In this document: positions 7,423-32,000 of the stretch, piece after piece
Layout: each line of letters begins with the position of its first letter
Numbering within the stretch: position 1 is the stretch's first letter
NCBI RefSeq assembly: GCF_000023965.1
Contig: NC_013202.1
Location: forward strand, 1,830,001 to 1,862,000
Source: Halomicrobium mukohataei DSM 12286
Lineage (GTDB): Archaea > Halobacteriota > Halobacteria > Halobacteriales > Haloarculaceae
DNA length: 32,000 bases
Direction of reading: 5' to 3'
Program-made: the position numbers and the translations under genes
Notes under the pieces: model-generated
What the model was told of the DNA's origin: nothing
Seen by the model: the letters and a program-made list of their open reading frames with translations, nothing else
The model's database searches: none

Positions 7423-8366
7423 GCGCGCTCGTAGAGGACGACGCCGCCGCTCTCTTCTCGCTCGACGCGACCTCGTTGTTCCAGCACGTCCAGGTGGCCG
7501 ACAGCCTCGCTCATGCCCGAGAACTGCTCGGTCACGGGGAGGTCACCGAAGAGTCCCTCCATCACGCTGACCGGCGTCGTGGGGCTATCCAGTAGCGTCT
7601 CGACATCGTCGGTGCGGTCCTCGTGTTCGGCTCTGATGGCCTCGATGCGTGCGCTTGGCTCCTCGATGTCCGTTCTGTGGCCCGGCAGGAATCGATCGTA
7701 CCCCGCCGTCGCGAGCCGGTCGAGCGAGTCGTTGTACCGCGGCAGCACCCGCGGCCGCGCCTCGCCGTCGTCGGCCGGCGGCTGGAGGAAAGGGTTCGGC
7801 GTGATGTCGGCCAGCACGTTGTCGCCGACGATCGCCCGGCGTTCGCCGTCGGCCTCGAACGCGAAGAGGACCTCGCCGACGGAGTGGCCGACGAGATCGT
7901 CGACCGCGACGAGGCTGTCGTCGACGGTGACCTCGTCGCCGGCAGCGACCGACCGATCGACCGTGACGCTGGACGCGTAGTTGAGGAACGCCTCGGGCAG
8001 CTGTGTGACGGTCTCGGCGGTCTCGGCCGCCATACCACAGCGCTCGAAGAAGTCCACGAAGTACGCCTGCTCGTGATCGAGTCGTCCCGCGAAGTCTTCG
8101 AGGATCGGCGTCGCGGGCTCGCTGGCGACGATTCGGGCACCCCGTTCGCCAAAGCGGTGAGCCAGCCCGAAGTGGTCCGGGTGGGGGTGGGTGATCAACA
8201 CTTGCTCGATATCGTCGGGCGCGAGCGACCGCGCTTCCAGGGCCGTCAGCAGCTCCGACCACGCTTCCTCGCTGTCGGGGCCGGGATCGACGATCGTCCG
8301 ACCGGCGAGGTAGCTGTTGACTGGGCCGACCTGAAACGGCGTCGGAAGTGACACACGGCGAAACAT
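7419..8366 (-). CDS. MBL-fold metallo-hydrolase
   Basis: 315 aa with an HxHxDH motif (VLITHPHPDHFGLA) and an N-terminus typical of the family (SLPTPFQVGPVNSYL). Acidic composition. Confidence 0.8.
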   Translation of the reverse strand: MFRRVSLPTPFQVGPVNSYLAGRTIVDPGPDSEEAWSELLTALEARSLAPDDIEQVLITHPHPDHFGLAHRFGERGARIVASEPATPILEDFAGRLDHEQAYFVDFFERCGMAAETAETVTQLPEAFLNYASSVTVDRSVAAGDEVTVDDSLVAVDDLVGHSVGEVLFAFEADGERRAIVGDNVLADITPNPFLQPPADDGEARPRVLPRYNDSLDRLATAGYDRFLPGHRTDIEEPSARIEAIRAEHEDRTDDVETLLDSPTTPVSVMEGLFGDLPVTEQFSGMSEAVGHLDVLEQRGRVEREESGGVVLYERA

Positions 8367-16460: not shown

Positions 16461-17771
16461 ATGAGCAAGGACAGTCCTGGGACCGCCGTTCCGGGCCACG
16501 GCGCGCGCTCGGGGTGGTCGCGCGAACAGGCGAGTCGCATCGAGCGAACCGACGACACGACGGCACCGATCGTCTACCCGCCCGCGACCGACCAGGCACC
16601 CGACGTTCACGTCTGGGACACCTGGCTGTTGCGCGAGCGCGACGGCACGGTCGCCACCGTCGACGGCTACCGTGTCACGTTCTCGCTGACTGCGCCGGCC
16701 GATCTCTTGCCGGGCAAGCGCCACGACGTGGCGACGATCCGGTACTTCTACTCGGCCGACGGCCGGACGTGGCAGCCCGGTGGCGTCGTCTTCGAGGAGC
16801 CGCTGGGCCAGCGCACCTGGGCCGGCTCCGCGCTGTACGACGACGGCGACATCTACCTCTTCTACACTGCGGCCGGGGAGCGCGGGGCGGACGAACTCAC
16901 CTACACCCAGCGCATCGTCGCCGCGTCCGGGGGGACACCGCGGACCGACGGCGAGTTCGCCATCGAGGGGCCCTGGACCCACCACGAACTGCTCCGCCCG
17001 GATGGCGACCGCTACGAGCGCCAGGACCAGTCTCGCGGCATGACCTACACCTTCCGAGATCCGTGGTTCTTCGAGGACCCTGCGACCGGCGAGACGCACC
17101 TCCTGTTCGAGGCCAACACGCCGGTGCCGGCGGCGAGCGACGCCTGCGGCGGCGACCCGGATCTACAGTCGTTCAACGGCAGCGTCGGCCTCGCGCACTC
17201 GCCGACGGGTGACCCCCTCTCCTGGGAGCTGTGTGACCCGCTGCTGGATTCGGTCTGTGTCAACCAAGAGCTCGAACGTCCCCACGTCGTCCCCCGGGAC
17301 GGCCGCTACTACCTCTTCGTCTCCAGCCACGACCACACCTTCGCGCCGGGGCTCGACGGCTACGACGCGCTGTATGGCTTCGTCGCCGACTCCCTGCGTG
17401 GCGACTACGTCCCGCTCAACGACTCCGGACTGGTCGTGACCAACCCCGCGAACGCCCCCTTCCAGGCGTACTCGTGGATGGTGTTCCCGCACCGGGAGGA
17501 AGTGCTGGTCCAGAGCTTCTTCAACTACTACGACTTCGAGGCCGACTCGATGGATCGGGTCGCAGACCTGCCCGAGTCCGAGCAGCTGCGACGCTTCGGC
17601 GGAACGCTCGCGCCGACGCTGCGCCTCCGGGTCGAGGGGACCCACACGGAGATCCTCGGGACGCTCGACCACTGGCAGATCCCGCTGCCCGACGAGGTCC
17701 TGCCGCCGACGGACCGAGAGTACTTCGCGGGCGAGAGCGGCGACGGCGGATCGTACTATAGTAGCCATTGA
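16461..17771 (+). CDS. GH68-family fructosyltransferase (levansucrase or inulosucrase-like)
   Basis: The three GH68 catalytic motifs are recognisable: VWDTWLL (nucleophile), FRDPWFF (RDP), and NQELERPHVV (the DEIER-type acid/base motif). No N-terminal signal peptide is evident. Confidence 0.8.
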   Translation: MSKDSPGTAVPGHGARSGWSREQASRIERTDDTTAPIVYPPATDQAPDVHVWDTWLLRERDGTVATVDGYRVTFSLTAPADLLPGKRHDVATIRYFYSADGRTWQPGGVVFEEPLGQRTWAGSALYDDGDIYLFYTAAGERGADELTYTQRIVAASGGTPRTDGEFAIEGPWTHHELLRPDGDRYERQDQSRGMTYTFRDPWFFEDPATGETHLLFEANTPVPAASDACGGDPDLQSFNGSVGLAHSPTGDPLSWELCDPLLDSVCVNQELERPHVVPRDGRYYLFVSSHDHTFAPGLDGYDALYGFVADSLRGDYVPLNDSGLVVTNPANAPFQAYSWMVFPHREEVLVQSFFNYYDFEADSMDRVADLPESEQLRRFGGTLAPTLRLRVEGTHTEILGTLDHWQIPLPDEVLPPTDREYFAGESGDGGSYYSSH

Positions 17772-17780
17772 AAATCAATG

Positions 17781-17816
17781 CACACCCGATCGCACGACGG
17801 CAGTGCGATCGGTGTG
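17781..17816. terminator. 14-bp hairpin (one bulge) between the convergent GH68 and GH32 genes
   Basis: CACACCCGATCGCAC-gacggca-GTGCGATCGGTGTG, 10 nt after the GH68 stop. The reverse-complement core resembles the core of the 84-nt repeat. Confidence 0.45.
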
Positions 17817-17940
17817 TAAATCGTTTCAATTGTTACTATACCGCTAGGGACTGCTCCGCGCGGGGTCGCCGGAGTAGACGGTACCACGCCACGTGCAGAC
17901 GATTCCCCGAGCACGTCCCGATCGACGCCGGTAACGGGTG

Positions 17941-20058
17941 CTACCAGATCGACGCCAGCTCCCAGGCTTCGACTGTCGGCAGTCGCGCGCGGCCGCCGAC
18001 GGTCGCGAGGTCGACGCCGGTCGCGTCGTCGCCGGCCGGATAGACGCGGCTCGTCAGGCAGTGGCGCTCGTTGGCGAACAGTTCGACGACCGACCCGTCG
18101 ACGAACACGCGCAGGTCCAGGGGCTCGTCGTACGGTGTGACGGGCACGTGCTGACTGTCGCTCGTCGCGCGCGGGTCCCTGCTGGAGCGACTGCGATCGA
18201 CTTCGAGCACGTCGTCTCTCGTGTATCGCAGCGTCGTGCGCTCGTTCTCCGTCGCCGTCCCGAGCAGCGTCACCTCGACGGCGTCGGCGTCGACCAGCGA
18301 GAGGCGGGTGGCGAGTTCGAACGAGCGTCCGTCGGTGTCCAGCCGGATCGACTCGCCGTCGTCGAGCGTGACGCTCTCGCGGGACTCGCAGTCGCCACGG
18401 AGTTCGGTCAGTTCCCGGGCCGGTCGCTGTCGGAGGCGGCCGTCGTCTCCGAGGGACAGCTCCCGCGGGAGCGACATCGTCCCCGACCAGCCGGCGTCCC
18501 ACTGGGCGCTCACGTCGCGCGCCTCGGGGACCCATCCCCAGGTGAGCAGGCGGCCGTCGTCTGCCCGGAGCGACTGCGGGGCGTAGTAGTCGCCGCGGTC
18601 CAGCGTCCCGCGTCGCTCCGGCTCGAAGGTCGCGCCGTCGAACTGGCCGAGGAAGTAGACCACGTCCTCGTAGTTCGAGACGTGCAACAGCTGCTTCTCC
18701 CCGAGGTCGAGTAGCTCCGGGCACTCCCAGACGGTCTCCTGTGGCGTGTCGCGGTCCCCCGAAAGGATCGGGCCACGGTACTCCCACTCACGGAGGTCCG
18801 GGGATTCGTACAACAGGACGACGCCGCCACCGTCGGCCAGTCCGGATCCGATCAGCTGGTACCAGGTCTCGCCCTCCTGCCAGACGCAGTGGTCTCGGAA
18901 CTCCCCGTTCCACTCCTCGGTCGAGAGCAGGTCCGGCTCCGTCGGGGGCGCTTCGATGATCGGATTGTCCGTCGCTTTCTCCCAGCGCCGCAGGGAGGGG
19001 TCGTCCGCCGTCGCGAGACAGGGCAGCTGGTCGCGGCCGCGCCCACCCGTGTACACGAGCGTCGCCGCGCCGTCGTCGTCGACCGCACAGCCCGACCAGC
19101 AGCCGTCGCGGTCGGGACCGTCCGGCGAGGGCGCGAGCGCAACGGGTTCGTCCTCCCAGTGGAGGAGGTCGTCGCTGACCGCGTGGCCCCAGTGGATCGT
19201 GTCGTGGTACGGGCCGCCGGGATTGTACTGGTAGAAGACGTGGTAGCGACCGTTCCACTGGACGACGCCGTTGGGGTCGTTGAGCCAGTTGGCGGGCGTC
19301 GAGAGGTGAAACTGCGGGCGGTGTGGATCGTCCTCGAAGCGATCGCGCAGGGCGGCGATCTCGCCGCCGGTCCGTGGTCGTTCGGGGATCGCGCTGTCGG
19401 CGGCGTTCGTCAGGACCGCACGGGCGAGCCTGTCGCGCTGGTCGTGGTCGCCGCCCTCGGCCGCGAAGACGAGGCCGTCACCGAGGCCGACGACGGAGCC
19501 GTCACCCAGCGACCAGCCCACGACGGTCACGAGGCCGGGCACGTCGTGGTCGGCGCTGACAGTGCTTGCCAGTACCTCGCCACGTTCCGGGAGGATCGAA
19601 TCGTAGCGCGCGAGCGTCGCGTCGGTGCCGCCTCTGGTGAGCGGCCGGCGCGTGGCCAGTGGCTCGAACAGAGGGTGGTCGTCGTAGGCCGTCTTGATCA
19701 GCGGACCGGTCGGGCCGCCGTCTGGGTCCGGCCCGACCGCGTCGGGGGTGACGGGGTCGATGCCGAGATCGTTCACCGCGGTCAGCGCCGCCAGCGAGAG
19801 GACGAGCCCGCCGCCCGAGCGGACGAACGCTCGGAGGACGCCGCCGAGGTCGGTAGTCGATCCCAGCTTCGGGGGCTCGTCGGCGTGCCACCAGCAGGTG
19901 TCGAACGCCGCCAGCGAGCGGTCGCCGTCGACGAGGTCGCTCACGGCGACGGGCGTCAGGTCCAACCCCGCCGTCTCGGCCCACTCGTCGGCCGCGGCCT
20001 GCTCCACGGACCGCCCGCCGTCGTGGAGCGACGCGATACGCACTGCCGTATCAGTCAT
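17941..20058 (-). CDS. GH32-family beta-fructosidase or fructan hydrolase with an N-terminal extension of about 240 aa
   Basis: ATG at 20058 (the track start at 20064 is TTG). GH32 motifs WLNDPNG, FRDH and WECPEL are followed by a beta-sandwich-length C-terminus. The N-terminal part has no motif I recognise. Confidence 0.8.
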   Translation of the reverse strand: MTDTAVRIASLHDGGRSVEQAAADEWAETAGLDLTPVAVSDLVDGDRSLAAFDTCWWHADEPPKLGSTTDLGGVLRAFVRSGGGLVLSLAALTAVNDLGIDPVTPDAVGPDPDGGPTGPLIKTAYDDHPLFEPLATRRPLTRGGTDATLARYDSILPERGEVLASTVSADHDVPGLVTVVGWSLGDGSVVGLGDGLVFAAEGGDHDQRDRLARAVLTNAADSAIPERPRTGGEIAALRDRFEDDPHRPQFHLSTPANWLNDPNGVVQWNGRYHVFYQYNPGGPYHDTIHWGHAVSDDLLHWEDEPVALAPSPDGPDRDGCWSGCAVDDDGAATLVYTGGRGRDQLPCLATADDPSLRRWEKATDNPIIEAPPTEPDLLSTEEWNGEFRDHCVWQEGETWYQLIGSGLADGGGVVLLYESPDLREWEYRGPILSGDRDTPQETVWECPELLDLGEKQLLHVSNYEDVVYFLGQFDGATFEPERRGTLDRGDYYAPQSLRADDGRLLTWGWVPEARDVSAQWDAGWSGTMSLPRELSLGDDGRLRQRPARELTELRGDCESRESVTLDDGESIRLDTDGRSFELATRLSLVDADAVEVTLLGTATENERTTLRYTRDDVLEVDRSRSSRDPRATSDSQHVPVTPYDEPLDLRVFVDGSVVELFANERHCLTSRVYPAGDDATGVDLATVGGRARLPTVEAWELASIW

Positions 20059-20210
20059 AAGCAAACAAAGACGAGTACAATCAAAAACGTCCCGCTCTCC
20101 GTGCCGCCGTCTCCGTCTCTCCGGTAGTGTCGGCTGTCAGCCACTGAAGCCACTCACACTGCCGAAGTGACGAGGCCGTACCAGACGGACAGCCGACGGT
20201 TTGACCGGGG

Positions 20211-20608: not shown

Positions 20609-21718
20609 CTAGGCGTTCTCGCCGAGGCGCTCTGCGATCCGCTGGGCACCGATCGTCGGGGCGATGTCGGGCTGGTCGGCGGCGATGGCCTCGATCTCGC
20701 GGTTCAGCTCCTCGCTGAGTCGGCGCTCGAACTCCTCGACGATCCCCGGGATACAGGCCATTCCGCCCGTGAGGACGATCGGCCGGTCCAGCGCCAGCTG
20801 GTACACTTTCATGTAGTCGTTGGCCAGCTCCGGGAGGAACGTGTTGGCGACTTCCTCGACCGCGTCGTCCAGGTACTCGTCGACAGCGTCCATCACCGAG
20901 CGTTCGATCGTGAACTCGTGAGAGCCCCCGCCGGGCTGTTGAATGATGTCCGTGAAGGGCTCGAAGTCGACGAAGTCGGCGTGTTCCTCTTTGTACTCGC
21001 GGGCCGTCTGGGTATCGATGTTGACCCGCCCCTGGGTCTCTTCCTCGACGTAGTTCGCGATCATGCGGTCGACCTCGTTGCCGGTCACGGCTCCGGTCGT
21101 GAACGGCGCGAGCTGTTCACCGCGCCGGTAGGCCGACGCTTCGAGGTTCGTCGATCCCATGTTGACCGCCAGGAAGATCTCGTCGATGGCTTCCAGATCG
21201 TCGCCGAAGGCCGGGATCGCACCACAGAGGGACTCGGGGTAGCTCTCGACGAGGTGCTTGCCGATCGAACTGCCCTCGATGACCGAGGTGAGGTTCTCCA
21301 GGCCCTGAGGGTTGTCGATCGTCGGAATCGCGTAGACCACGGCGCTGTACTCGGGGAGGTCGTTCTGGTCGATCAACGCCTGGAAGAACGTCTCGGTCAG
21401 CTCCGCCCGGTCCTCGTCTTCCGGCAGTCCCGACCGGAGCATGAACTGGACGCGGTCGGGGTACTCTGCGGCTGCCTCCTCGCCGTAGAGTACCTTCTCC
21501 TCGCCGGTCAGTGCGTCCTCGTAGGTCGCGAGACAGGTCAGGGTCCTGATGATCTCGTCCTCGGTGCCACGGGCTCCGGGGACGGAGATGACGGTTCGGG
21601 TGCTGCCGAGCTTCACGCCGATGGGCACTGCCGCCTCGGCGTCGCCGACCGGTGATTCCTCGTCGACTGACTCCGACTGGTCGCCCGTCGAGGCGTCGTC
21701 TGCCGCGTCGTCACTCAT
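20609..21718 (-). CDS. actin/MreB/ParM-fold (ASKHA) ATPase with an acidic N-terminal tail
   Basis: ATG at 21718. Phosphate-1-like IGVKLGSTRTV, phosphate-2-like LAVNMGSTNLEA, and adenosine-motif-like IVLTGGMACIPGI, in the canonical order and spacing. Confidence 0.7.
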   Translation of the reverse strand: MSDDAADDASTGDQSESVDEESPVGDAEAAVPIGVKLGSTRTVISVPGARGTEDEIIRTLTCLATYEDALTGEEKVLYGEEAAAEYPDRVQFMLRSGLPEDEDRAELTETFFQALIDQNDLPEYSAVVYAIPTIDNPQGLENLTSVIEGSSIGKHLVESYPESLCGAIPAFGDDLEAIDEIFLAVNMGSTNLEASAYRRGEQLAPFTTGAVTGNEVDRMIANYVEEETQGRVNIDTQTAREYKEEHADFVDFEPFTDIIQQPGGGSHEFTIERSVMDAVDEYLDDAVEEVANTFLPELANDYMKVYQLALDRPIVLTGGMACIPGIVEEFERRLSEELNREIEAIAADQPDIAPTIGAQRIAERLGENA

Positions 21719-21741
21719 GTGCCAGTGGTTTTCCCGCGTCC

Positions 21742-21750
21742 GATATATAT
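21742..21750 (-). promoter_or_regulatory. TATA box (ATATATATC on the minus strand) for the actin-fold ATPase gene
   Basis: AT-rich octamer centred about 28 nt upstream of the ATG at 21718, consistent with a leaderless haloarchaeal transcript. Confidence 0.45.
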
Positions 21751-21836
21751 CCCCCGACCGAACTAACAGAGCTGATAATCGAACTGCCAGCAAGCACGCC
21801 GCTCGACCATCCGTCCGCGCGACCCGTTCATACCGA

Positions 21837-21909: not shown

Positions 21910-22398
21910 TCAGGCCATCGAGTGGAGCTTCGCGACGTAGACGAGACTCAGCATGTGATCGTCCACGTCGAGGCTGGCACCGTCGTTGGTCCCCGACTCG
22001 TCGATACCACGGAGGTAGTCCGACAGCGACGACTGGACGTCGTCGGTGATCCAGTCGATGTCCTCGTAGTAGTCGAGTGCCTCCTCGGCTCCCTGGTACC
22101 CCGAGTGCATCAGGAGGAACTCCAGCCACTCGAAGACGACGAACTCGGCCGCGTAGTTCTCGGGCAACGCCGCCAGATACGGCTTCTCCGTGCCGTCCGA
22201 GCCGAGGAAGGGCAGCAGCTCGCGGTAGAGACCGGCACGGAACGAATCGCCCGCGGGAGCGTCGCCGCCCTCGTCCATCGCCATTCCCAGCTCGGCCGGA
22301 TCGAGCGTCTCCTCGTCGCCCATCCCGTTGCCCGGCCGCTGTTGCTTTGCCATCTTCCGTAACTCGTCGAGATCGTAGTCGCGCGGATTGATGGTCAT
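21910..22398 (-). CDS. orphan ArlD/E (FlaD/E)-domain protein
   Basis: ATG at 22398 (the upstream start at 22422 would fall inside the TATA region). The C-terminal PYLAALPENYAAEFVVFEWLEFLLMHSGYQGAEEALDYYEDIDWITDDV matches my memory of the archaeal flagellar FlaD/E family core. Confidence 0.6.
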   Translation of the reverse strand: MTINPRDYDLDELRKMAKQQRPGNGMGDEETLDPAELGMAMDEGGDAPAGDSFRAGLYRELLPFLGSDGTEKPYLAALPENYAAEFVVFEWLEFLLMHSGYQGAEEALDYYEDIDWITDDVQSSLSDYLRGIDESGTNDGASLDVDDHMLSLVYVAKLHSMA

Positions 22399-22528: not shown

Positions 22529-22540
22529 TATTTTTATATT
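22529..22540 (+). promoter_or_regulatory. TATA box (TATTTTTATATT) for the parA-cheW-like operon
   Basis: AT-rich dodecamer centred about 37 nt upstream of the ATG at 22572. Confidence 0.45.
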
Positions 22541-22571: not shown

Positions 22572-23483
22572 ATGAGTCGCCAATCTGGGTCCACTGTAGC
22601 GCGCCTGTGTGTGACGAACGCCAAAGGCGGCACCGGGAAGACGACGGTCGCCGTCAACGTGGCCGGCGCGCTCAACGAACGCGGCCGTGACGTGCTGTTC
22701 GTCGACCTCGACCCTCAGGGCAACGCCACGGAGGCACTGGGGCTGGTCGAGAGCTACGACGCCCAGCCACCGACGCTGTTCGACGTGCTGACGAGCGCCG
22801 ACCAGCGCTCGTCGATCGCGGATCTGATCGTGGACCACGACGAGATGGACGTGGTTCCGAGCAACATCGACATGCTCCAGGTCGAACACGAACTGACCAT
22901 CGCCGACCTCGTGGCGCGGGTCCAACACGACGACTCGATCGACATCGATCCCGAGACGCTGAGTGACCTCTCGCTGAACGTCACGCCCGATTCTGTCTCG
23001 GGCGCGCACGCACTCGACGTACTCGACGAGGCACTCGCCGTGGTCGAGGACGACTACGACTACGTCGTCATCGACTCGCCGCCCTTCTACGGGAAACTCA
23101 CAGACGCCGGTATCTACGCGTCTCAGAACATCCTCGTCCCGGCGCTGACCGAGGCGTCCTCGGAACGAGCCATCGAACTCCTGATCGACCAGATGGCCGC
23201 TCTGGAGGGCCAGACCGGCATCACCGTCAACACGCTCGGCGTGGTCGCCAACCGGGTCGAGAAGACGAACGAAGACGAGACGATGCTGTCGTGGCTCGGC
23301 GAGGTGTTCGAGGAGTTCCCGATCTGGGAGGTCCGCAAGCGCGTCGCGCTCCAGCGGGCTTTCACAGCCGGCAGTTCTATCTTCCAGTACGAGGAATCCG
23401 TGGACATGGAATCGGTCTTTCTCGACGTTGCGACGGAACTGGACAGACAGTTCGGCCTGCTGGACGAGGAGGTGCCGGCATGA
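22572..23483 (+). CDS. ParA/Soj-type P-loop ATPase (deviant Walker A)
   Basis: Deviant Walker A NAKGGTGKTT with the signature Lys. A' motif VDLDPQGNAT. Walker B YVVIDSPP. 303 aa. Confidence 0.88.
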   Translation: MSRQSGSTVARLCVTNAKGGTGKTTVAVNVAGALNERGRDVLFVDLDPQGNATEALGLVESYDAQPPTLFDVLTSADQRSSIADLIVDHDEMDVVPSNIDMLQVEHELTIADLVARVQHDDSIDIDPETLSDLSLNVTPDSVSGAHALDVLDEALAVVEDDYDYVVIDSPPFYGKLTDAGIYASQNILVPALTEASSERAIELLIDQMAALEGQTGITVNTLGVVANRVEKTNEDETMLSWLGEVFEEFPIWEVRKRVALQRAFTAGSSIFQYEESVDMESVFLDVATELDRQFGLLDEEVPA

Positions 23484-24757
23484 GCGACGACGACGAGCGC
23501 ATGGACCGCGCCAAACGGATCCGCCGGATGCGCGAAGGCCAGCGGTCCGGCGACGACGCCGACGACTCCGGGGAGGCGGACGCAGACGACACGGAGGCCG
23601 ACGACGCAGCGACGGACGCAGCCGACGAGCCGGAAGCGCCGACCGACGACGAGTCGGAAACAACTGAAGCAGCCGACGAGCCGGAAGCGACTGCAGAGTC
23701 GTCTGACGCTGCGTCCGAGGCAGTCGACGACACGGAGGCCGACGACGAAGCGACGGACGCAGCCGAGGACCCGGCAGTGACGACCGACGACCCACCAGCG
23801 ACCGACGAGGAGTCACCGTCGGAGACGGAAGCCGACGACGCGGTGACGGACCCGGAGGGCGACACGGCCGCCGAGAGGGACGAACCGAGCGAACGAACGC
23901 ACGCGACCCCACAGAACGAGGCGGCCCAGCAGCCGGCACGGGCGGACGGCGCCTCCCAGGGGACGGACGGCACACAGACGAGCGACGACAGTATGAACGA
24001 GGGCACTTCGGCGAGCGACCCGGAGGAATCGAACACGACCGACGAGGGGTCACCCGACCCCGAGGCAATCGCACAGCGGGCCGCACAGGCGGCGGCCAGT
24101 GTCTCGGGCGGCGGGACAGAGACCCAGTCGTCCCAGGCAGGTGGGGGCGAACCGACGCCGGCAGAGACTGCCGCCGCGGTCCAGGAGGCCAGCGGCGTCG
24201 AACTCCCCGACCAGGAACAGATCGACGCTGCGCTGGCGGCGTCCGACGAGTCGACCGCGGACGCCGCGAGCACGGAGACAGCACCGTCGGCGGTCGAGTC
24301 AGAGAGCACGACGACCGAGGAGTCGACGCGCGTCCTGGAGTTTACGCTCGGCGACGAGCACTACTGCATCGACATCTCGCTGGTCGAGGAGATCGTCAAA
24401 CGTGACACGATCACGCGCGTGCCAAACACCGACGAGTACATCGAGGGCGTGGTCGACCTGCGGGGCCAGATCACGACGATCCTCGATCCGAAGGCGCTGC
24501 TCGACATCGACGCCGAGGGCCAGGAGTCCCTGATGATCGTCTTCGACCCCGAAGCGTTCGACGACCAGGGCGCGATCGGCTGGATCGTCGACGAGGTCCG
24601 GCAGGTCGCTCCCGTCGTGGAGTCCGAGATCAACGAGCCCCCGGTCAACGACGAGTACATCCGGGGCGTCGTCGACCGCGACGACGGGTTCGTCATCTGG
24701 ACGAAACCCGAAGTGGCGATCAAGCTCGCGACCGCCGAGGAGACCGACGACGGGTAG
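23480..24757 (+). CDS. CheW-domain protein with a basic N-terminal peptide and an acidic disordered linker of about 255 aa
   Basis: ATG at 23480 overlaps the parA stop (ATGA). Residues 8-24 are basic (MDRAKRIRRMREGQRSG). Residues about 25-280 are D/E/T/A/S-rich with internal repeats. Residues about 283-420 look like a CheW fold (VLEFTLGDEHYCIDISLVEEIV...IEGVVDLRGQITTILDPKALL...IRGVV). Confidence 0.75.
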   Translation: MSDDDERMDRAKRIRRMREGQRSGDDADDSGEADADDTEADDAATDAADEPEAPTDDESETTEAADEPEATAESSDAASEAVDDTEADDEATDAAEDPAVTTDDPPATDEESPSETEADDAVTDPEGDTAAERDEPSERTHATPQNEAAQQPARADGASQGTDGTQTSDDSMNEGTSASDPEESNTTDEGSPDPEAIAQRAAQAAASVSGGGTETQSSQAGGGEPTPAETAAAVQEASGVELPDQEQIDAALAASDESTADAASTETAPSAVESESTTTEESTRVLEFTLGDEHYCIDISLVEEIVKRDTITRVPNTDEYIEGVVDLRGQITTILDPKALLDIDAEGQESLMIVFDPEAFDDQGAIGWIVDEVRQVAPVVESEINEPPVNDEYIRGVVDRDDGFVIWTKPEVAIKLATAEETDDG

Positions 24758-26155: not shown

Positions 26156-26299
26156 GTGCGAACAGAGATAGATGTGGAGCGCGGTGGCGACCTGCATGAG
26201 CGGATCAAAGAGTACGCTCGTGAGAATGGTATCCGCCATCCGCGTGCTTACCGTGAGCTCATCGAACAAGGGTTAGAGACGGATGGAAACGACGACTAA
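26156..26299 (+). CDS. putative ribbon-helix-helix (CopG-like) micro-protein, 47 aa, overlapping the tnpB start
   Basis: GTG at 26156, about 29 nt after a TATA-like box (AGTATTTA, 26123-26130). Protein VRTEIDVERGGDLHERIKEYARENGIRHPRAYRELIEQGLETDGNDD has a strand-helix-helix pattern. No ATG start and below the ORF-track length cut-off. Confidence 0.35.
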   Translation: MRTEIDVERGGDLHERIKEYARENGIRHPRAYRELIEQGLETDGNDD

Positions 26300-27539
26300 G
26301 ACGCTCGAAGCCACGCTTGTCCCGCCGACAGCACACAAAGAGCGGAAACTGTGTGACCTGCTCGAAACCTACCGGGAGGGGCTTCACGAGGCGTTCGACG
26401 CCAGGTGTGACACGATGAGCGCAACCAGCGATGTGGTGACGCCTTACGACCTGCCGTATCAGGCGAAAGCGGCGCTGTGCAACTACGTCCCGCAACTTCA
26501 CAACACCTACGACGCTCAAGAGTTAGACGATGACCACCCGGTTCGGCTCACCAACCAAGCCGCCGAGTTTGACCACTCTCCGGCGCGTGACTACGAGTTT
26601 ACGTGGTGGGCACCACAACCCGGTCGTGGGACGAATTTCTGGATACCGCTTCGTATCAATCCCGAACAGGAGGATCTGTGGCACGACCTCGTAGATGGGA
26701 ACGCTTCGGCAGGCCAACTCCGCCTGCAACGGAACCGCACATCGTGGACGTTACACGTCACTGTCGAGTTTCCGGTCGAAGAACCCGACTACGCGACGGA
26801 CGGCGACGACGTGACGCACATCGGTCTGGATATTGGTGAAACTGCCCTGATAACGGGCTGTGCCCTCAAGGACGGTTCACCAACTGGCCCGTTCGTGTGT
26901 GACGGGAGCCGTGCGAAGCATCTCCGCAAAGAGATGCACACCACCCTGAAACGACTCCAAGAGCGAGACGCCGTCGAGTGGCGGATTGACGAGCGATTCA
27001 ACCACTACCAGAACGCGCTTACCGATATTGTCGAGAAGGCGTCTCGGCAGGCCGTCGAGTACGCCCGGCAATTCGAGAAGCCGGTGCTGGTAATGGAGAA
27101 CCTGACGTACATCCGCGAAGAATTGGACTACGGTTCGTACATGAACCGGCGACTCCATGCGTGGGCGTTCGCTCGATTACAGAACCGCGTCGAGGACAAA
27201 TCGAAAGAGGCCGGTATCCCGGTCGAATACGTCCGACCGGAGTACACCAGCCAGACGTGCCACGCCTGCGGCCACATCGGAAACAGAGCCGCGCAAGCCA
27301 CGTTCCGGTGTACCAACGACGAGTGTCACATCACGGAGTTTCAGGGCGATATAAACGGCGCAATCAACGTTGCACAACGGGCTGACCCGTGGGGAGAGAG
27401 CGTGCCGCTGAAACCGGCAGGCAATGACTCGCCTCGGGATGGGAGTGCCTGTGACAGCACCACGACCCACACCAAGCAGAGCCAACCACGGCAGATGACG
27501 CTTAGCGAGGTCGGGTCGGAACCCACTGCCGGTAGTTGA
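26283..27539 (+). CDS. tnpB: TnpB (IS1341-type RNA-guided endonuclease or transposase accessory protein)
   Basis: 418 aa. RuvC-like residues lie in IGLDIGETAL, VLVMENLT and GDINGAINVA. Zn-ribbon CHACGH...CTNDECH. The gene appears intact. Confidence 0.88.
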   Translation: METTTKTLEATLVPPTAHKERKLCDLLETYREGLHEAFDARCDTMSATSDVVTPYDLPYQAKAALCNYVPQLHNTYDAQELDDDHPVRLTNQAAEFDHSPARDYEFTWWAPQPGRGTNFWIPLRINPEQEDLWHDLVDGNASAGQLRLQRNRTSWTLHVTVEFPVEEPDYATDGDDVTHIGLDIGETALITGCALKDGSPTGPFVCDGSRAKHLRKEMHTTLKRLQERDAVEWRIDERFNHYQNALTDIVEKASRQAVEYARQFEKPVLVMENLTYIREELDYGSYMNRRLHAWAFARLQNRVEDKSKEAGIPVEYVRPEYTSQTCHACGHIGNRAAQATFRCTNDECHITEFQGDINGAINVAQRADPWGESVPLKPAGNDSPRDGSACDSTTTHTKQSQPRQMTLSEVGSEPTAGS

Positions 27540-29127: not shown

Positions 29128-29530
29128 TCACGCCAGGGTCGTCTTCGAGTGCTTCGAGCTCTGCTTCGAGCTCCTCGTCGGTACGACCGTCGCCGATCTG
29201 TCGCTGGGGTTGCTCGGGCTCGGCGTCCGCATCACGATGATGACCGAACAGCCGATTCGCCTGACCGAGGCTGGAGACGTACCGCCGAACGTCGGCCCGT
29301 TCGCCGAGTGCGTGATAGTACCCGTCGTCGGTCTTTCCGACGAAGCCCTCGTCGTAGAGACGCTTGAGCGTGGCCGTAGCGGTACCGCGAGGGATCTCCA
29401 GCGCGTCCGCGATCTCTCGTGGGGCATATCCCCATTCGGGGTTTCGATAGAGGTGTGCCACGATGTCTGACTTCGTGGTCCCCGGCCGGAGGTCGATCTC
29501 GGCGTCGTGATCTTCGAGGAATACGGGCAT
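29120..29530 (-). CDS. winged-helix (MarR/TrmB-like) DNA-binding protein, putative antitoxin
   Basis: 136 aa. The wHTH pattern is KSDIVAHLYRNPEWGYAPREIADALEIPRGTATATLKRLYDEGFVGK, with an acidic C-terminal tail. A 10-bp palindrome TAATCGATTA overlaps its TATA region around 29545-29560. Confidence 0.6.
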   Translation of the reverse strand: MPVFLEDHDAEIDLRPGTTKSDIVAHLYRNPEWGYAPREIADALEIPRGTATATLKRLYDEGFVGKTDDGYYHALGERADVRRYVSSLGQANRLFGHHRDADAEPEQPQRQIGDGRTDEELEAELEALEDDPGVNE

Positions 29531-29780
29531 CGTGTAACCGTATGTAATCGATTATAGCGTAAAACCGCTGCGGTCAGTCGGCGAGATCGGTCGGTGTCTG
29601 CGGTCTCTGCACGACCGACACACCTCACGATTGCGCGTCCATCGCTCGCACGAGGAAGATGTCGTCTCCCGTAGGACCGCAAAGCAGCCACGAATCGACG
29701 CCGCCGCCTGAACGACAATTCCGCCGATATCGGCCGCGACAGGCCGTGAGTATGTGTGTCATCCTCCCGCGAGTGACCAC

Positions 29781-29793
29781 AAAGCATTTATAA
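29781..29793 (+). promoter_or_regulatory. strong BRE/TATA element (AAAGCATTTATAA) upstream of the surface glycoprotein gene
   Basis: Near-consensus haloarchaeal BRE plus TATA, about 140 nt upstream of the ATG at 29934. This implies a 5' UTR of about 110 nt. Confidence 0.5.
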
Positions 29794-29933
29794 CACCCGA
29801 CTAACGTTTTGACTGTACCCCTACCCATGGTGTCAGTAACGAGTATCCCGGTTCGGTCTGTACGCGGTTCGCCACAAGAGCCGCGTCCGACAGGGAGAAA
29901 GCTGCTGGCTCCGATTGCAACAGACAACAAACT

Positions 29934-32000
29934 ATGACAGGAACTAACGATAAGGTTCGCAGCCTGTTCCTCTCTGCGCTGATGGTCATGTCCGTCGTCG
30001 CGATGGGCACGGCTTTCACTGCAGGAGCAGTTGCGGACACTAGCGGTAATGCGACTGTCGAAAGCCTCGAGGTTACGCAAAACCGCGTCCTCGAAGCTGA
30101 CGACTCTCGTAGTAGCGACATTCAAACACAGACCGTCGAATTCGACGCATATCTCGAATCCGGCGACACGGAAGAGATCACGATCGACACGGCCGACGCT
30201 GAAGACAACGGCCTGACGATCGACGACGTTTCCGTCGACGGCTCCACGTCTAGCGACGTTTCCGTCGAGGACGTCGACTTCGACGACGACCAGATCACCT
30301 TCGATCTGAGCGAGGACGCCGGTGGCTCCACGGTCAATGATGCCACCGTCGCCCTCAACGTCGACTTCGACGTGAGTGACGGTGAGAACGCAAACCGTCT
30401 CGAACACGTCGTCACGGCAACTGGTGACGACGGGTCCACGACGCTCTCCCCGGTCACCGCCACGTACAAGATTGCCGGCGATTACTCGAAGACCGTCAAC
30501 GGCGAGGATTCGGTCTTCGCTGGTGAGACGATCCGATTCACCCCCGGTGCCGAAAACACCCAGATCGAGGTCTACACGACCGACGACGAGGGTGCTCCGA
30601 CGAACAACCGTGTTGCAAACTTCAACACGGCGTTCGACACCGCGATCAACTTCGACACGTCGAACCTCGACACTGGCGAGACGTACAACGTTCAGATCAG
30701 TGGCAGTGGTGTCACCGATACTGACTACGATCTCGCTGTCAACGACCTCGGCCTCGACGCCGAAGCACGTGACACGCAGATCTCCACGGAAGACCGCATC
30801 GTCGCGGACATCACGTCGAACGCGAACCTCGACGACCCGTGGACGGCTACGCTCCTCGACAGCGACGGTGAGGCCGTCGAGGACGACAACGGTGATGCAA
30901 TCGAACGAACTGGTAGCTTCTCCGGCTCCGGTGCAGCAACCGTTCGATTCACCGCTCCGACCGACTCTGACCACTACGGCACTGGCAACTACTCGGTCGA
31001 AGTCACGCACGACGACACCGGCATCACGTCGGAAACCGACTCGATCGAAGTCTCGGAAGCCGGTGACGGCGACGTCTCCTTCGCTGGCGACGGCGTCTTC
31101 ACCGAAGAAGCCGGTGACGTCGCGAACGTCACGGTCGAGATGACCAACACCGACGAAGCGACGGTCACCATCGGTACCGAAGATCAGGGTTACTACATCG
31201 TCTACCAGGTCTCTGACGAGAGCGGTGACGGTCAGGTCTCCCTCGAATTCAACAGCTACACCGCAGGCCGCACGTCCCAGGACAACGTCGTCAGCGTCGC
31301 TAACTCTGACGACGAGATCGAGTTCCTCACGCAGGGTGGCGACTTCACCAACACCTCCGAGGCTGTCGGCTCCGACACCCTCGACCCGACGGAATACGAG
31401 ATGAACGCTTCCGTCGGCCACGTCGACATGGGCACCGACGACTACACTGACTCCGACGCGCTCGGCTCGCTCTCGCTGCAGCCGCGCTCGACCGACGGCA
31501 TGCAGTCGTGGGTCACGCCGAAGGGCACCGACATCAGCGACCTCAGTGATGACGTTGGCAACATCTACGACGAGATCGGCTCGTCGATCACCGAGTCCGG
31601 CGAAGTCGCCTACGACGACGGTGACGCCGACGGCGACACCGTCATCCTCCAGCTCGAAGCTGGCGGTATCGAGGGTGCCATCGACCACGCAAATGGTCTG
31701 AAGACCCTCATCGACAACAACCAGGACAACGACGACGATGAAGCGATCGACCTCACGATCGAGCAGACCAACGAGGATGCAAACCGGAACGCAAAGACGC
31801 TCGACTTCGTGAACGACGACGCGATCTCGGTCATCGAAGACCCCGAGAACAACTCGTACTTCATCGCCGTTGAGCTGTCGAAGGTCGACCAGCCGACCCG
31901 CGACCTCGCGGAAGGCGACAACTTCGAGGCGACATTCACCATCGAGGACGACAACGTCCTCAACACGATCGACGACAACGAGGAAGTCACCAGTGACTTC
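29934..32000 (+). CDS. secreted acidic cell-surface (S-layer-like) glycoprotein, N-terminal 689 aa; continues past the window end
   Basis: ATG at 29934 and open to base 32000. Signal peptide MTGTNDKVRSLFLSALMVMSVVAMGTAFTAGAVA resembles haloarchaeal S-layer glycoprotein leaders. Extremely D/E/T-rich with N-x-S/T sequons (NAT, NVT, NTS, NAS). It is absent from the ORF track because it has no stop in the window. Confidence 0.75.
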   Translation, partial: MTGTNDKVRSLFLSALMVMSVVAMGTAFTAGAVADTSGNATVESLEVTQNRVLEADDSRSSDIQTQTVEFDAYLESGDTEEITIDTADAEDNGLTIDDVSVDGSTSSDVSVEDVDFDDDQITFDLSEDAGGSTVNDATVALNVDFDVSDGENANRLEHVVTATGDDGSTTLSPVTATYKIAGDYSKTVNGEDSVFAGETIRFTPGAENTQIEVYTTDDEGAPTNNRVANFNTAFDTAINFDTSNLDTGETYNVQISGSGVTDTDYDLAVNDLGLDAEARDTQISTEDRIVADITSNANLDDPWTATLLDSDGEAVEDDNGDAIERTGSFSGSGAATVRFTAPTDSDHYGTGNYSVEVTHDDTGITSETDSIEVSEAGDGDVSFAGDGVFTEEAGDVANVTVEMTNTDEATVTIGTEDQGYYIVYQVSDESGDGQVSLEFNSYTAGRTSQDNVVSVANSDDEIEFLTQGGDFTNTSEAVGSDTLDPTEYEMNASVGHVDMGTDDYTDSDALGSLSLQPRSTDGMQSWVTPKGTDISDLSDDVGNIYDEIGSSITESGEVAYDDGDADGDTVILQLEAGGIEGAIDHANGLKTLIDNNQDNDDDEAIDLTIEQTNEDANRNAKTLDFVNDDAISVIEDPENNSYFIAVELSKVDQPTRDLAEGDNFEATFTIEDDNVLNTIDDNEEVTSDF

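Follow-up and report, generated by a model that had tools for sequence, protein, structure and literature searches.

A pair of overlapping genes in Halomicrobium mukohataei DSM 12286 probably encodes a two-component system that positions the chemotaxis machinery of the cell as its cargo. The pair lies in a stretch of 32,000 nucleotides (nt) of contig NC_013202.1 (positions 1,830,001 to 1,862,000), analysed here at its full length and hereafter called the window; positions are given in the numbering of the window. The first gene (22572..23483, + strand) encodes a ParA/Soj-type ATPase of 303 amino acids (aa) with a deviant Walker A motif, recognised from its sequence and from the Pfam domains AAA_31 and CbiA. 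The second gene (23480..24757, + strand) encodes a protein of 425 aa, here called CheW-L, in which sequence, Pfam, composition and AlphaFold2 (AF2) models distinguish three parts: a helix at the N-terminus, a linker that is acidic and disordered, and a CheW domain. In databases the two proteins are plainly 'ParA family protein' and 'chemotaxis protein CheW'. A preliminary description of this DNA, made from the letters alone, had noted that the two reading frames overlap and that the second protein has three parts. Both statements hold: the start codon of CheW-L (ATG, 23480-23482) lies over the stop codon of ParA (TGA, 23481-23483), so that the two genes share an ATGA at 23480..23483 (+ strand) suggestive of translational coupling, and CheW-L consists of an Arg-rich N-terminal helix, an acidic linker of 257 aa and a C-terminal CheW domain (Pfam E 5.4e-24).

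The element that probably ties the two proteins together is a short motif at the N-terminus of CheW-L. From the named ATG this N-terminus reads MSDDDERMDRAKRIRRMREGQRSG, and within it the motif ERMDRAKRIRRMREGQR (aa 6-22; 23495..23545, + strand) is predicted to form an amphipathic helix, which we propose to be a ParA-binding tag on the grounds of its conservation, its AF2 model and its co-occurrence with ParA. It is nearly invariant in 111 homologs, with the consensus [DE]-R-[MI]-[DE]-R-A-x-R-I-[RS]-x-[ML]-R-E-G-x-[RK], where the Arg at positions 2, 5, 8 and 13, the Ala and the Ile do not vary at all. The AF2 model, built on an alignment of 20 sequences, has a helix at aa 3-19 with a predicted local distance difference test score (pLDDT) of ~80. 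On a helical wheel, as we read it, the invariant Met/Ala/Ile/Met and Arg residues occupy one broad face and two variable positions lie opposite. When 1.35 Mb of haloarchaeal loci were translated in all six frames, the pattern RAxRIxxxRE[GQNS] was found nowhere but at the N-terminus of CheW-L. The preliminary description had spoken of a basic N-terminal peptide: the Arg-rich stretch, a predicted helix, is there, but the protein starts 7 residues upstream of the quoted 'MDRAK...' and the net charge of its beginning is low, as discussed below.

The conservation of this peptide follows the presence of ParA. All of the 72 loci with ParA carry the motif. Among seven loci without ParA it is missing in five, decayed in one and intact in one, the last beside a freshly deleted ParA (Fisher p = 2.5e-8 for 72/0 vs 1/6, a value not corrected for shared ancestry). 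The Haloplanus clade provides the closest comparison, within a shared gene order: an MMPL or CARDB gene, ParA where present, CheW-L, DUF8057, two KaiC-like ATPases, HTH_20, DUF7521 and archaellin. Four loci of this clade (L081, L086, L087 and L088) have the motif, in the variant DRA[ED]RIxR[ML]REGRR (RTERIQRMREG in L081), and all four have an overlapping ParA; four others, in Haloplanus aerogenes (L085), H. halophilus (L089), H. ruber (L090) and H. vescus (L091), lack the motif, and ParA is absent from all four. The remaining losses come from metagenome-assembled genomes (MAGs) of Haloarculaceae. In L060 and L066 ParA is internally deleted, its N-terminal residues being joined to ...DRQFGYAEVTA*. 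The remnant of L060 (...RQDRAGP...DRQFGYAEVTA*, ~7800-7995 of the locus) stands beside an intact motif, and the remnant of the same type in L066 (~7600-7800) beside a decayed one, DQERRVRQTPEGQ; the two probably descend from one ancestral deletion. In L025 both ParA and the motif are lost. These lineages amount to a natural experiment, in which the loss of ParA went along with the loss of the tag. The N-terminus of the ArlD-like protein encoded next to the pair served as a control. It is unchanged in Haloarculaceae loci without ParA, and we therefore rejected it as a second ParA tag. Comparative evidence thus argues strongly that CheW-L binds ParA through its N-terminal peptide, as a tag, and its cargo through the CheW domain.

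The pair is not confined to one genome, since we count at least 72 loci in the lineages sampled. With each GTDB species represented by one genome, a scan gave 71 Haloarculaceae loci of the CheW-L family, distributed over Haloarcula, Halomicrobium, Halosimplex, Halovenus, Halorhabdus, Halapricum, Salinibaculum and related MAGs. ParA stands directly upstream of CheW-L in 65 of these 71, and three more end at a contig edge and are unscorable. The seven other pairs belong to other lineages. The overlap is well kept: it measures 4 nt in 61 of the 65 Haloarculaceae pairs (8 nt in three, with a 10-nt gap in one) and in all seven pairs elsewhere, i.e. in 68 of 72. In Halomicrobium katesii (L001) the gene order is that of the window and CheW-L is 92% identical. 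Outside Haloarculaceae the pair is found in Haloplanus-clade MAGs (Haloferacaceae), where genes for archaellin and KaiC-like ATPases as well as cheY/cheC lie a few kb away; beside aconitase in a GC-rich lineage; and immediately 3' of cheA in two archaeal MAG lineages (L083, 7051-8681, with cheB also upstream; L093, 1173-3121). The ParAs of these pairs are 54-67% identical to that of the window and hence its orthologs. The recurrence of overlap, motif and gene order in 72 loci of several genera is a feature beyond chance, and ParA and CheW-L have moved together through no fewer than five genomic contexts. Among 1.84 billion cluster representatives, a profile search returned ~45 clusters (50% identity) of full-length CheW-L relatives, below which come ordinary CheW and multi-CheW proteins. 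The Haloarcula rara locus (L017, 7447-8555) looked motif-less at first; it does have the motif, and its CheW-L is frameshifted inside the acidic linker, which could mark a pseudogene or stem from an error in the sequencing of low-complexity DNA. Two kinds of candidates were discarded. Long ParA homologs, examined as possible natural fusions of ParA to CheW-L, proved to be mis-called N-terminal extensions, and the bacterial loci drawn in by a CheW pattern (L075-L080, Thiobacillus and relatives) are unrelated and have no ParA upstream.

The ATPase matches AAA_31 at 5e-35 (121 bits vs a cut-off of 27) and CbiA at 7e-22 (78 bits vs 25.4), and is 100% identical to the database entry 'MULTISPECIES: ParA family protein [Halomicrobium]'. 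It reaches no NCBIfam equivalog cut-off, ParA_partition scoring 88 bits vs 180. Its deviant Walker A motif KGGTGKT, with the signature lysine (aa 18-24; nt 22623-22643), is invariant in 56 homologs. The AF2 model (pLDDT 85.6, predicted template modelling score 0.87) finds its closest solved folds in Soj, McdA and ParA (Foldseek E 5e-16 to 1e-12), while MinD, FlhG and FleN are weaker matches (E 1e-10 or weaker). Inspection of the C-terminus, which ends in the acidic ...ELDRQFGLLDEEVPA, revealed no amphipathic membrane-targeting helix of the MinD kind. Judged by its modelled fold, the ATPase is a member of the ParA/Soj branch rather than of the MinD type. One segment of it deserves attention. 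The stretch VRKRVALQRAFTAGSSIF (aa 254-271; window 23331-23384), which includes the basic VRKRVALQRA (aa 254-263), is invariant in the same 56 homologs and yet is the sole internal stretch with pLDDT <50 in the AF2 monomer. Such invariance combined with low confidence in the monomer makes it a candidate interaction surface, and it may take on an ordered form only when a partner binds there.

The linker of CheW-L (aa 24-280; 23549..24319, + strand), delimited by composition and AF2, is acidic and of low complexity: 30.7% D+E against 1.6% K+R, a net charge of -75 and 4.7% hydrophobic residues. Its pLDDT stays below 50 except in two short conserved helices (+ strand) at aa 194-208 (nt 24059-24103) and 239-254 (nt 24194-24241), given by the AF2 model as aa 194-209 and 245-256, the second of which is also retained in homologs without ParA. 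The length of the linker varies, proteins of the family ranging from 226 to 425 aa, and its sequence is not conserved, which fits a role as tether or spacer. The suggestion that it acts as a spacer is thus in line with what we observe, whereas the alternative offered with it, a condensate-forming region, gained no support. The CheW domain follows at aa 285-408 (24332..24703, + strand; PF01584, 5.4e-24, 84.8 bits vs a cut-off of 23.5). NCBIfam CheW also matches (1.5e-13), and sequence matches in the PDB are to CheW proteins only (2qdl at 6e-17), with no CheA at E <= 1e-3. The C-terminal region thus scores as CheW by three routes, in agreement with the first assignment. The domain is ~45% identical to canonical haloarchaeal CheW. 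As a whole, CheW-L is unlike the stand-alone CheW adaptors of ~140-170 aa, being 425 aa long with an N-terminal extension of 280 aa.

The closest known parallel is the ParC/ParP system of Vibrio and Pseudomonas, which positions chemoreceptor arrays at the cell pole. There too a ParA-like gene stands immediately upstream of the gene for a protein with a CheW-like domain, and ParP binds ParC through its N-terminal region, from which a long linker leads to the CheW-like domain at the C-terminus (PMC5706961). CheW-L has the same three-part design, the ATPase-binding role of its N-terminus being suggested by the co-occurrence with ParA. The two pairs that follow cheA (L083 and L093) also recall the position of parC-parP within bacterial che operons, whereas the pair of the window lies outside che genes and adjoins an ArlD paralog and salactin. 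Other differences concern the proteins themselves. The linker of CheW-L is polyacidic, that of ParP proline-rich; the ParP-AIF domain is reported to be nearer CheA-P5 than CheW (PMC5706961), while the CheW-L domain matches CheW in PDB sequence searches. Since the domain matches CheW and not CheA-P5, the resemblance is probably convergent rather than a matter of orthology, and the ~45% identity to canonical haloarchaeal CheW suggests a local duplication and an independent origin. Hence ParC/ParP is closest in working logic, but membership in the ParC/ParP family is not supported, given the CheW-type domain, its identity to CheW and the location away from che genes. The earlier proposal of an archaeal analogue is supported by the ParP-like architecture and by the motif-ParA co-occurrence, from which binding would follow; the pair is probably an archaeal counterpart of bacterial ParC/ParP. 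None of the outcomes that the preliminary description had named as refuting it came about, since the C-terminal region scores as CheW, the peptide is conserved in step with ParA and the pair recurs in many genomes.

Partners of ParA/MinD ATPases generally bind the ATPase through a charged N-terminal peptide (PMC10241942, PMC11407121), and other systems share parts of this arrangement. In Rhodobacter sphaeroides the ParA-like ATPase PpfA partitions chemosensory clusters and is engaged by the N-terminus of its partner TlpT; TlpT is a cytoplasmic chemoreceptor, whereas Pfam finds in CheW-L only the CheW domain and no signalling domain of methyl-accepting chemotaxis proteins (MCPs). The carboxysome-positioning pair McdA/McdB has an ATPase of similar, Soj/McdA-like fold and a partner in which a charged N-terminal peptide is followed by a disordered region. 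Its cargo is another, and in CheW-L the peptide is no loosely basic tail: it forms a well-defined amphipathic helix, by prediction, that hardly varies. Among archaea, MinD4 and MinD2 of Haloferax volcanii are also ParA/MinD-family ATPases that affect the placement of chemosensory arrays and archaella. They are, however, of MinD type, with a membrane-targeting helix, oscillation and no known cargo adaptor, while the ATPase of the window is Soj-like, has an acidic C-terminus and is genetically coupled to its adaptor.

CheW2 of Halobacterium salinarum calls for a comparison of its own. This second CheW of the species, whose gene lies near the fla genes, binds transducers and not CheA (PMC3579733), and the motif-less CheW-L homologs of Haloplanus occupy a similar position near archaellin genes. 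It differs from CheW-L in that the N-terminus deduced from its cloning primer, MSDDETD, lacks the motif; its C-terminus, SKPDALV, also primer-derived, is equally like canonical CheW1 and the CheW-L family, so that membership in the family is not established, although it could be a relative that has neither motif nor ParA. In the tables of PMC3579733 no ParA is adjacent to H. salinarum CheW2. The CheW2 of Haloferax is absent among the best 120 of the 137 homologs of a Haloplanus-clade query.

How such a system might work can be outlined from these parts. ParA, being Soj-like, would alternate between a monomer and a dimer that has ATP bound. The dimer would sit on some matrix or landmark, for which the nucleoid or a site at the pole is the most likely candidate; we know of no HubP/FimV landmark in archaea. 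CheW-L would be the cargo adaptor, its CheW domain inserting into arrays of chemoreceptors (Htr/MCP). Its Arg-rich N-terminal amphipathic helix would dock on the ParA dimer and probably stimulate ATP hydrolysis, and the long acidic disordered linker would be the flexible tether between array and ParA. The ATGA overlap would keep the two proteins co-expressed. The architecture, the conservation and the co-occurrence of motif and ParA are observed; from them we infer direct binding, ATPase stimulation, integration into arrays and an output in array positioning or inheritance. Some observations fit this scheme less well. The ParA position equivalent to R189 of Soj is Ala in a hand alignment. By composition, the first 23 residues of CheW-L have a net charge of only +2, because acidic residues come before the Arg-rich amphipathic helix. 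The losses of ParA are few, perhaps three or four if counted as independent events, and MAGs account for several of them. For the CheW domain of CheW-L the AF2 model, also built on 20 sequences, is of low confidence (pLDDT 35-65), and a Pfam scan of the window identified no che or arl cluster.

The neighbourhood of the pair bears on other interpretations. Upstream and divergent from ParA lies the gene for an ArlD-like protein with an Arch_fla_DE domain (21910..22398, - strand; PF04659, 4.6e-30), of 162 aa from the conserved start MTINPRDYDLDELRKMA. The gene is syntenic in most Haloarculaceae loci, and the protein has a conserved N-terminus, M[ST][IL]NPxDYDL[DN]ELRxMA, and a second motif, SFRAGLYRELLP, both of which persist without ParA. 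ArlD2 of H. volcanii is a possible counterpart of this paralog. In the 173-bp intergenic region between the divergent genes, an A/T-rich, TATA-like box, TTTTTATAT (22531..22539, + strand), read from the sequence ~35 nt 5' of the ParA ATG, is a candidate promoter element by position only. Beyond the ArlD-like gene comes the gene for the actin homolog salactin (20609..21793, - strand; PF25229, 2e-187; likely start ATG at 21718), which in most Haloarculaceae loci (L001-L071) keeps close synteny with both the ArlD-like gene and ParA/CheW-L. In Halosimplex an insert of ~5 kb separates it from the module, and several Halovenus loci have no salactin within 8 kb. Synteny around the salactin gene of Halobacterium has been reported to be poor (PMC10746226). 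Downstream of CheW-L stand a Drg-type GTPase and then a TnpB-like open reading frame (ORF).

One might speculate from this neighbourhood that the task of the pair is to position or regulate the archaellum motor, or to link the arrays to it, and not to position the arrays as such, the CheW domain or the linker touching motor-associated proteins such as the ArlD paralog. The ArlD-like gene is indeed the conserved divergent neighbour in Haloarculaceae, and the pair of the Haloplanus clade has archaellin, cheY/cheC and KaiC-like ATPase genes only a few kb away. But this is at odds with a cargo end that is a genuine CheW domain, a type known to have receptors and CheA as partners, with the lack of an ArlD-like gene beside the pair in other lineages, and with the deletion of arlD2 in H. 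volcanii, which gave no motility phenotype (PMC7534055). We regard such a role as unlikely. CheW-L might also be a modulator of signalling, a competitor CheW that binds receptors without CheA and that ParA sequesters and releases, rather than a link by which ParA moves arrays. CheW2 of H. salinarum, which has been proposed to tune complex formation by binding Htrs and not CheA (PMC3579733), offers a precedent, and the persistence of motif-less CheW-L homologs where ParA is gone indicates that the CheW part has a function independent of ParA. Yet the orthology of that CheW2 to the CheW-L family is not established, its primer-derived termini being uninformative, and ParA-family ATPases whose partners carry N-terminal peptides are known as positioning systems; we think a mainly modulatory role quite improbable.

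It is more doubtful still that the two genes are merely co-transcribed, the helix being an independent element for binding membrane or DNA and ParA acting in DNA segregation, possibly with salactin. ParA is Soj-like, its conserved neighbour salactin influences DNA partitioning at low phosphate (PMC10746226), and Arg-rich amphipathic helices are able to bind membranes or DNA. Against it stand the loss or decay of the motif in lineages that have lost ParA, the absence, by Pfam, of a gene for a ParB-like or DNA-binding partner in the module, and the cohesion of the pair across five genomic contexts, which salactin does not share. This leaves it a very small chance. Positioning of chemosensory arrays through a tagged CheW-domain adaptor thus remains the interpretation that we favour. 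It could be widened for Haloarculaceae, where salactin, the ArlD paralog, ParA and CheW-L might together organise the cell pole as a single system. ParA and an actin filament with dynamic instability would then jointly place and partition both the base of the archaellum, via the ArlD paralog, and the arrays, via CheW-L. We hold this wider scheme to be an unlikely one. If true, salactin would gain a function related to motility, and the cytoskeleton-plus-ParA machine would be without bacterial precedent.

Of the proteins that place chemosensory arrays in archaea, only Haloferax MinD4 and MinD2 have been implicated, with no cargo adaptor known for either, and reviews of ParA/MinD proteins list for archaea only the MinD proteins of Haloferax. 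Full-text searches of the library consulted gave no description of an archaeal ParA/CheW-domain pair, and searches for sojB/cheW2 and for ParA/CheW/ParP in haloarchaea gave nothing relevant; this agrees with the opinion in the preliminary description that a CheW-domain adaptor for an archaeal ParA had not been characterised. The module thus offers candidates for an ATPase and an adaptor dedicated to this task, and its tag of 17 residues, defined by sequence, makes the question directly testable. Its logic is the known one of ParC/ParP. New are the lineage, the tag and the linker, a probably independent origin, and the linkage both to salactin and to an ArlD paralog. If our interpretation is true, the combination of a ParA with a CheW-domain adaptor arose in archaea as well, probably independently of ParC/ParP. 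The conserved linkage provides a new lead on both the ArlD paralog and salactin, and for synthetic positioning in halophiles the tag might be put to use as a portable 'luggage tag'.

The remainder of the window holds nuo genes, an ATP-binding cassette (ABC) transporter, fructan enzymes of families GH68 and GH32, and others. Two long ORFs at 29128-31688 (- strand), of 219 and 687 aa and without Pfam match, are candidate genes or GC-rich shadow ORFs. The TnpB/Cas12f-like ORF (26283-27539, + strand; PF07282, 1.3e-16) lies just 3' of the Drg GTPase gene. Finally, a levansucrase-like gene of family GH68 stands at 16461-20064 with one of family GH32, near the ABC transporter, and the group suggests a fructan-metabolism cluster.

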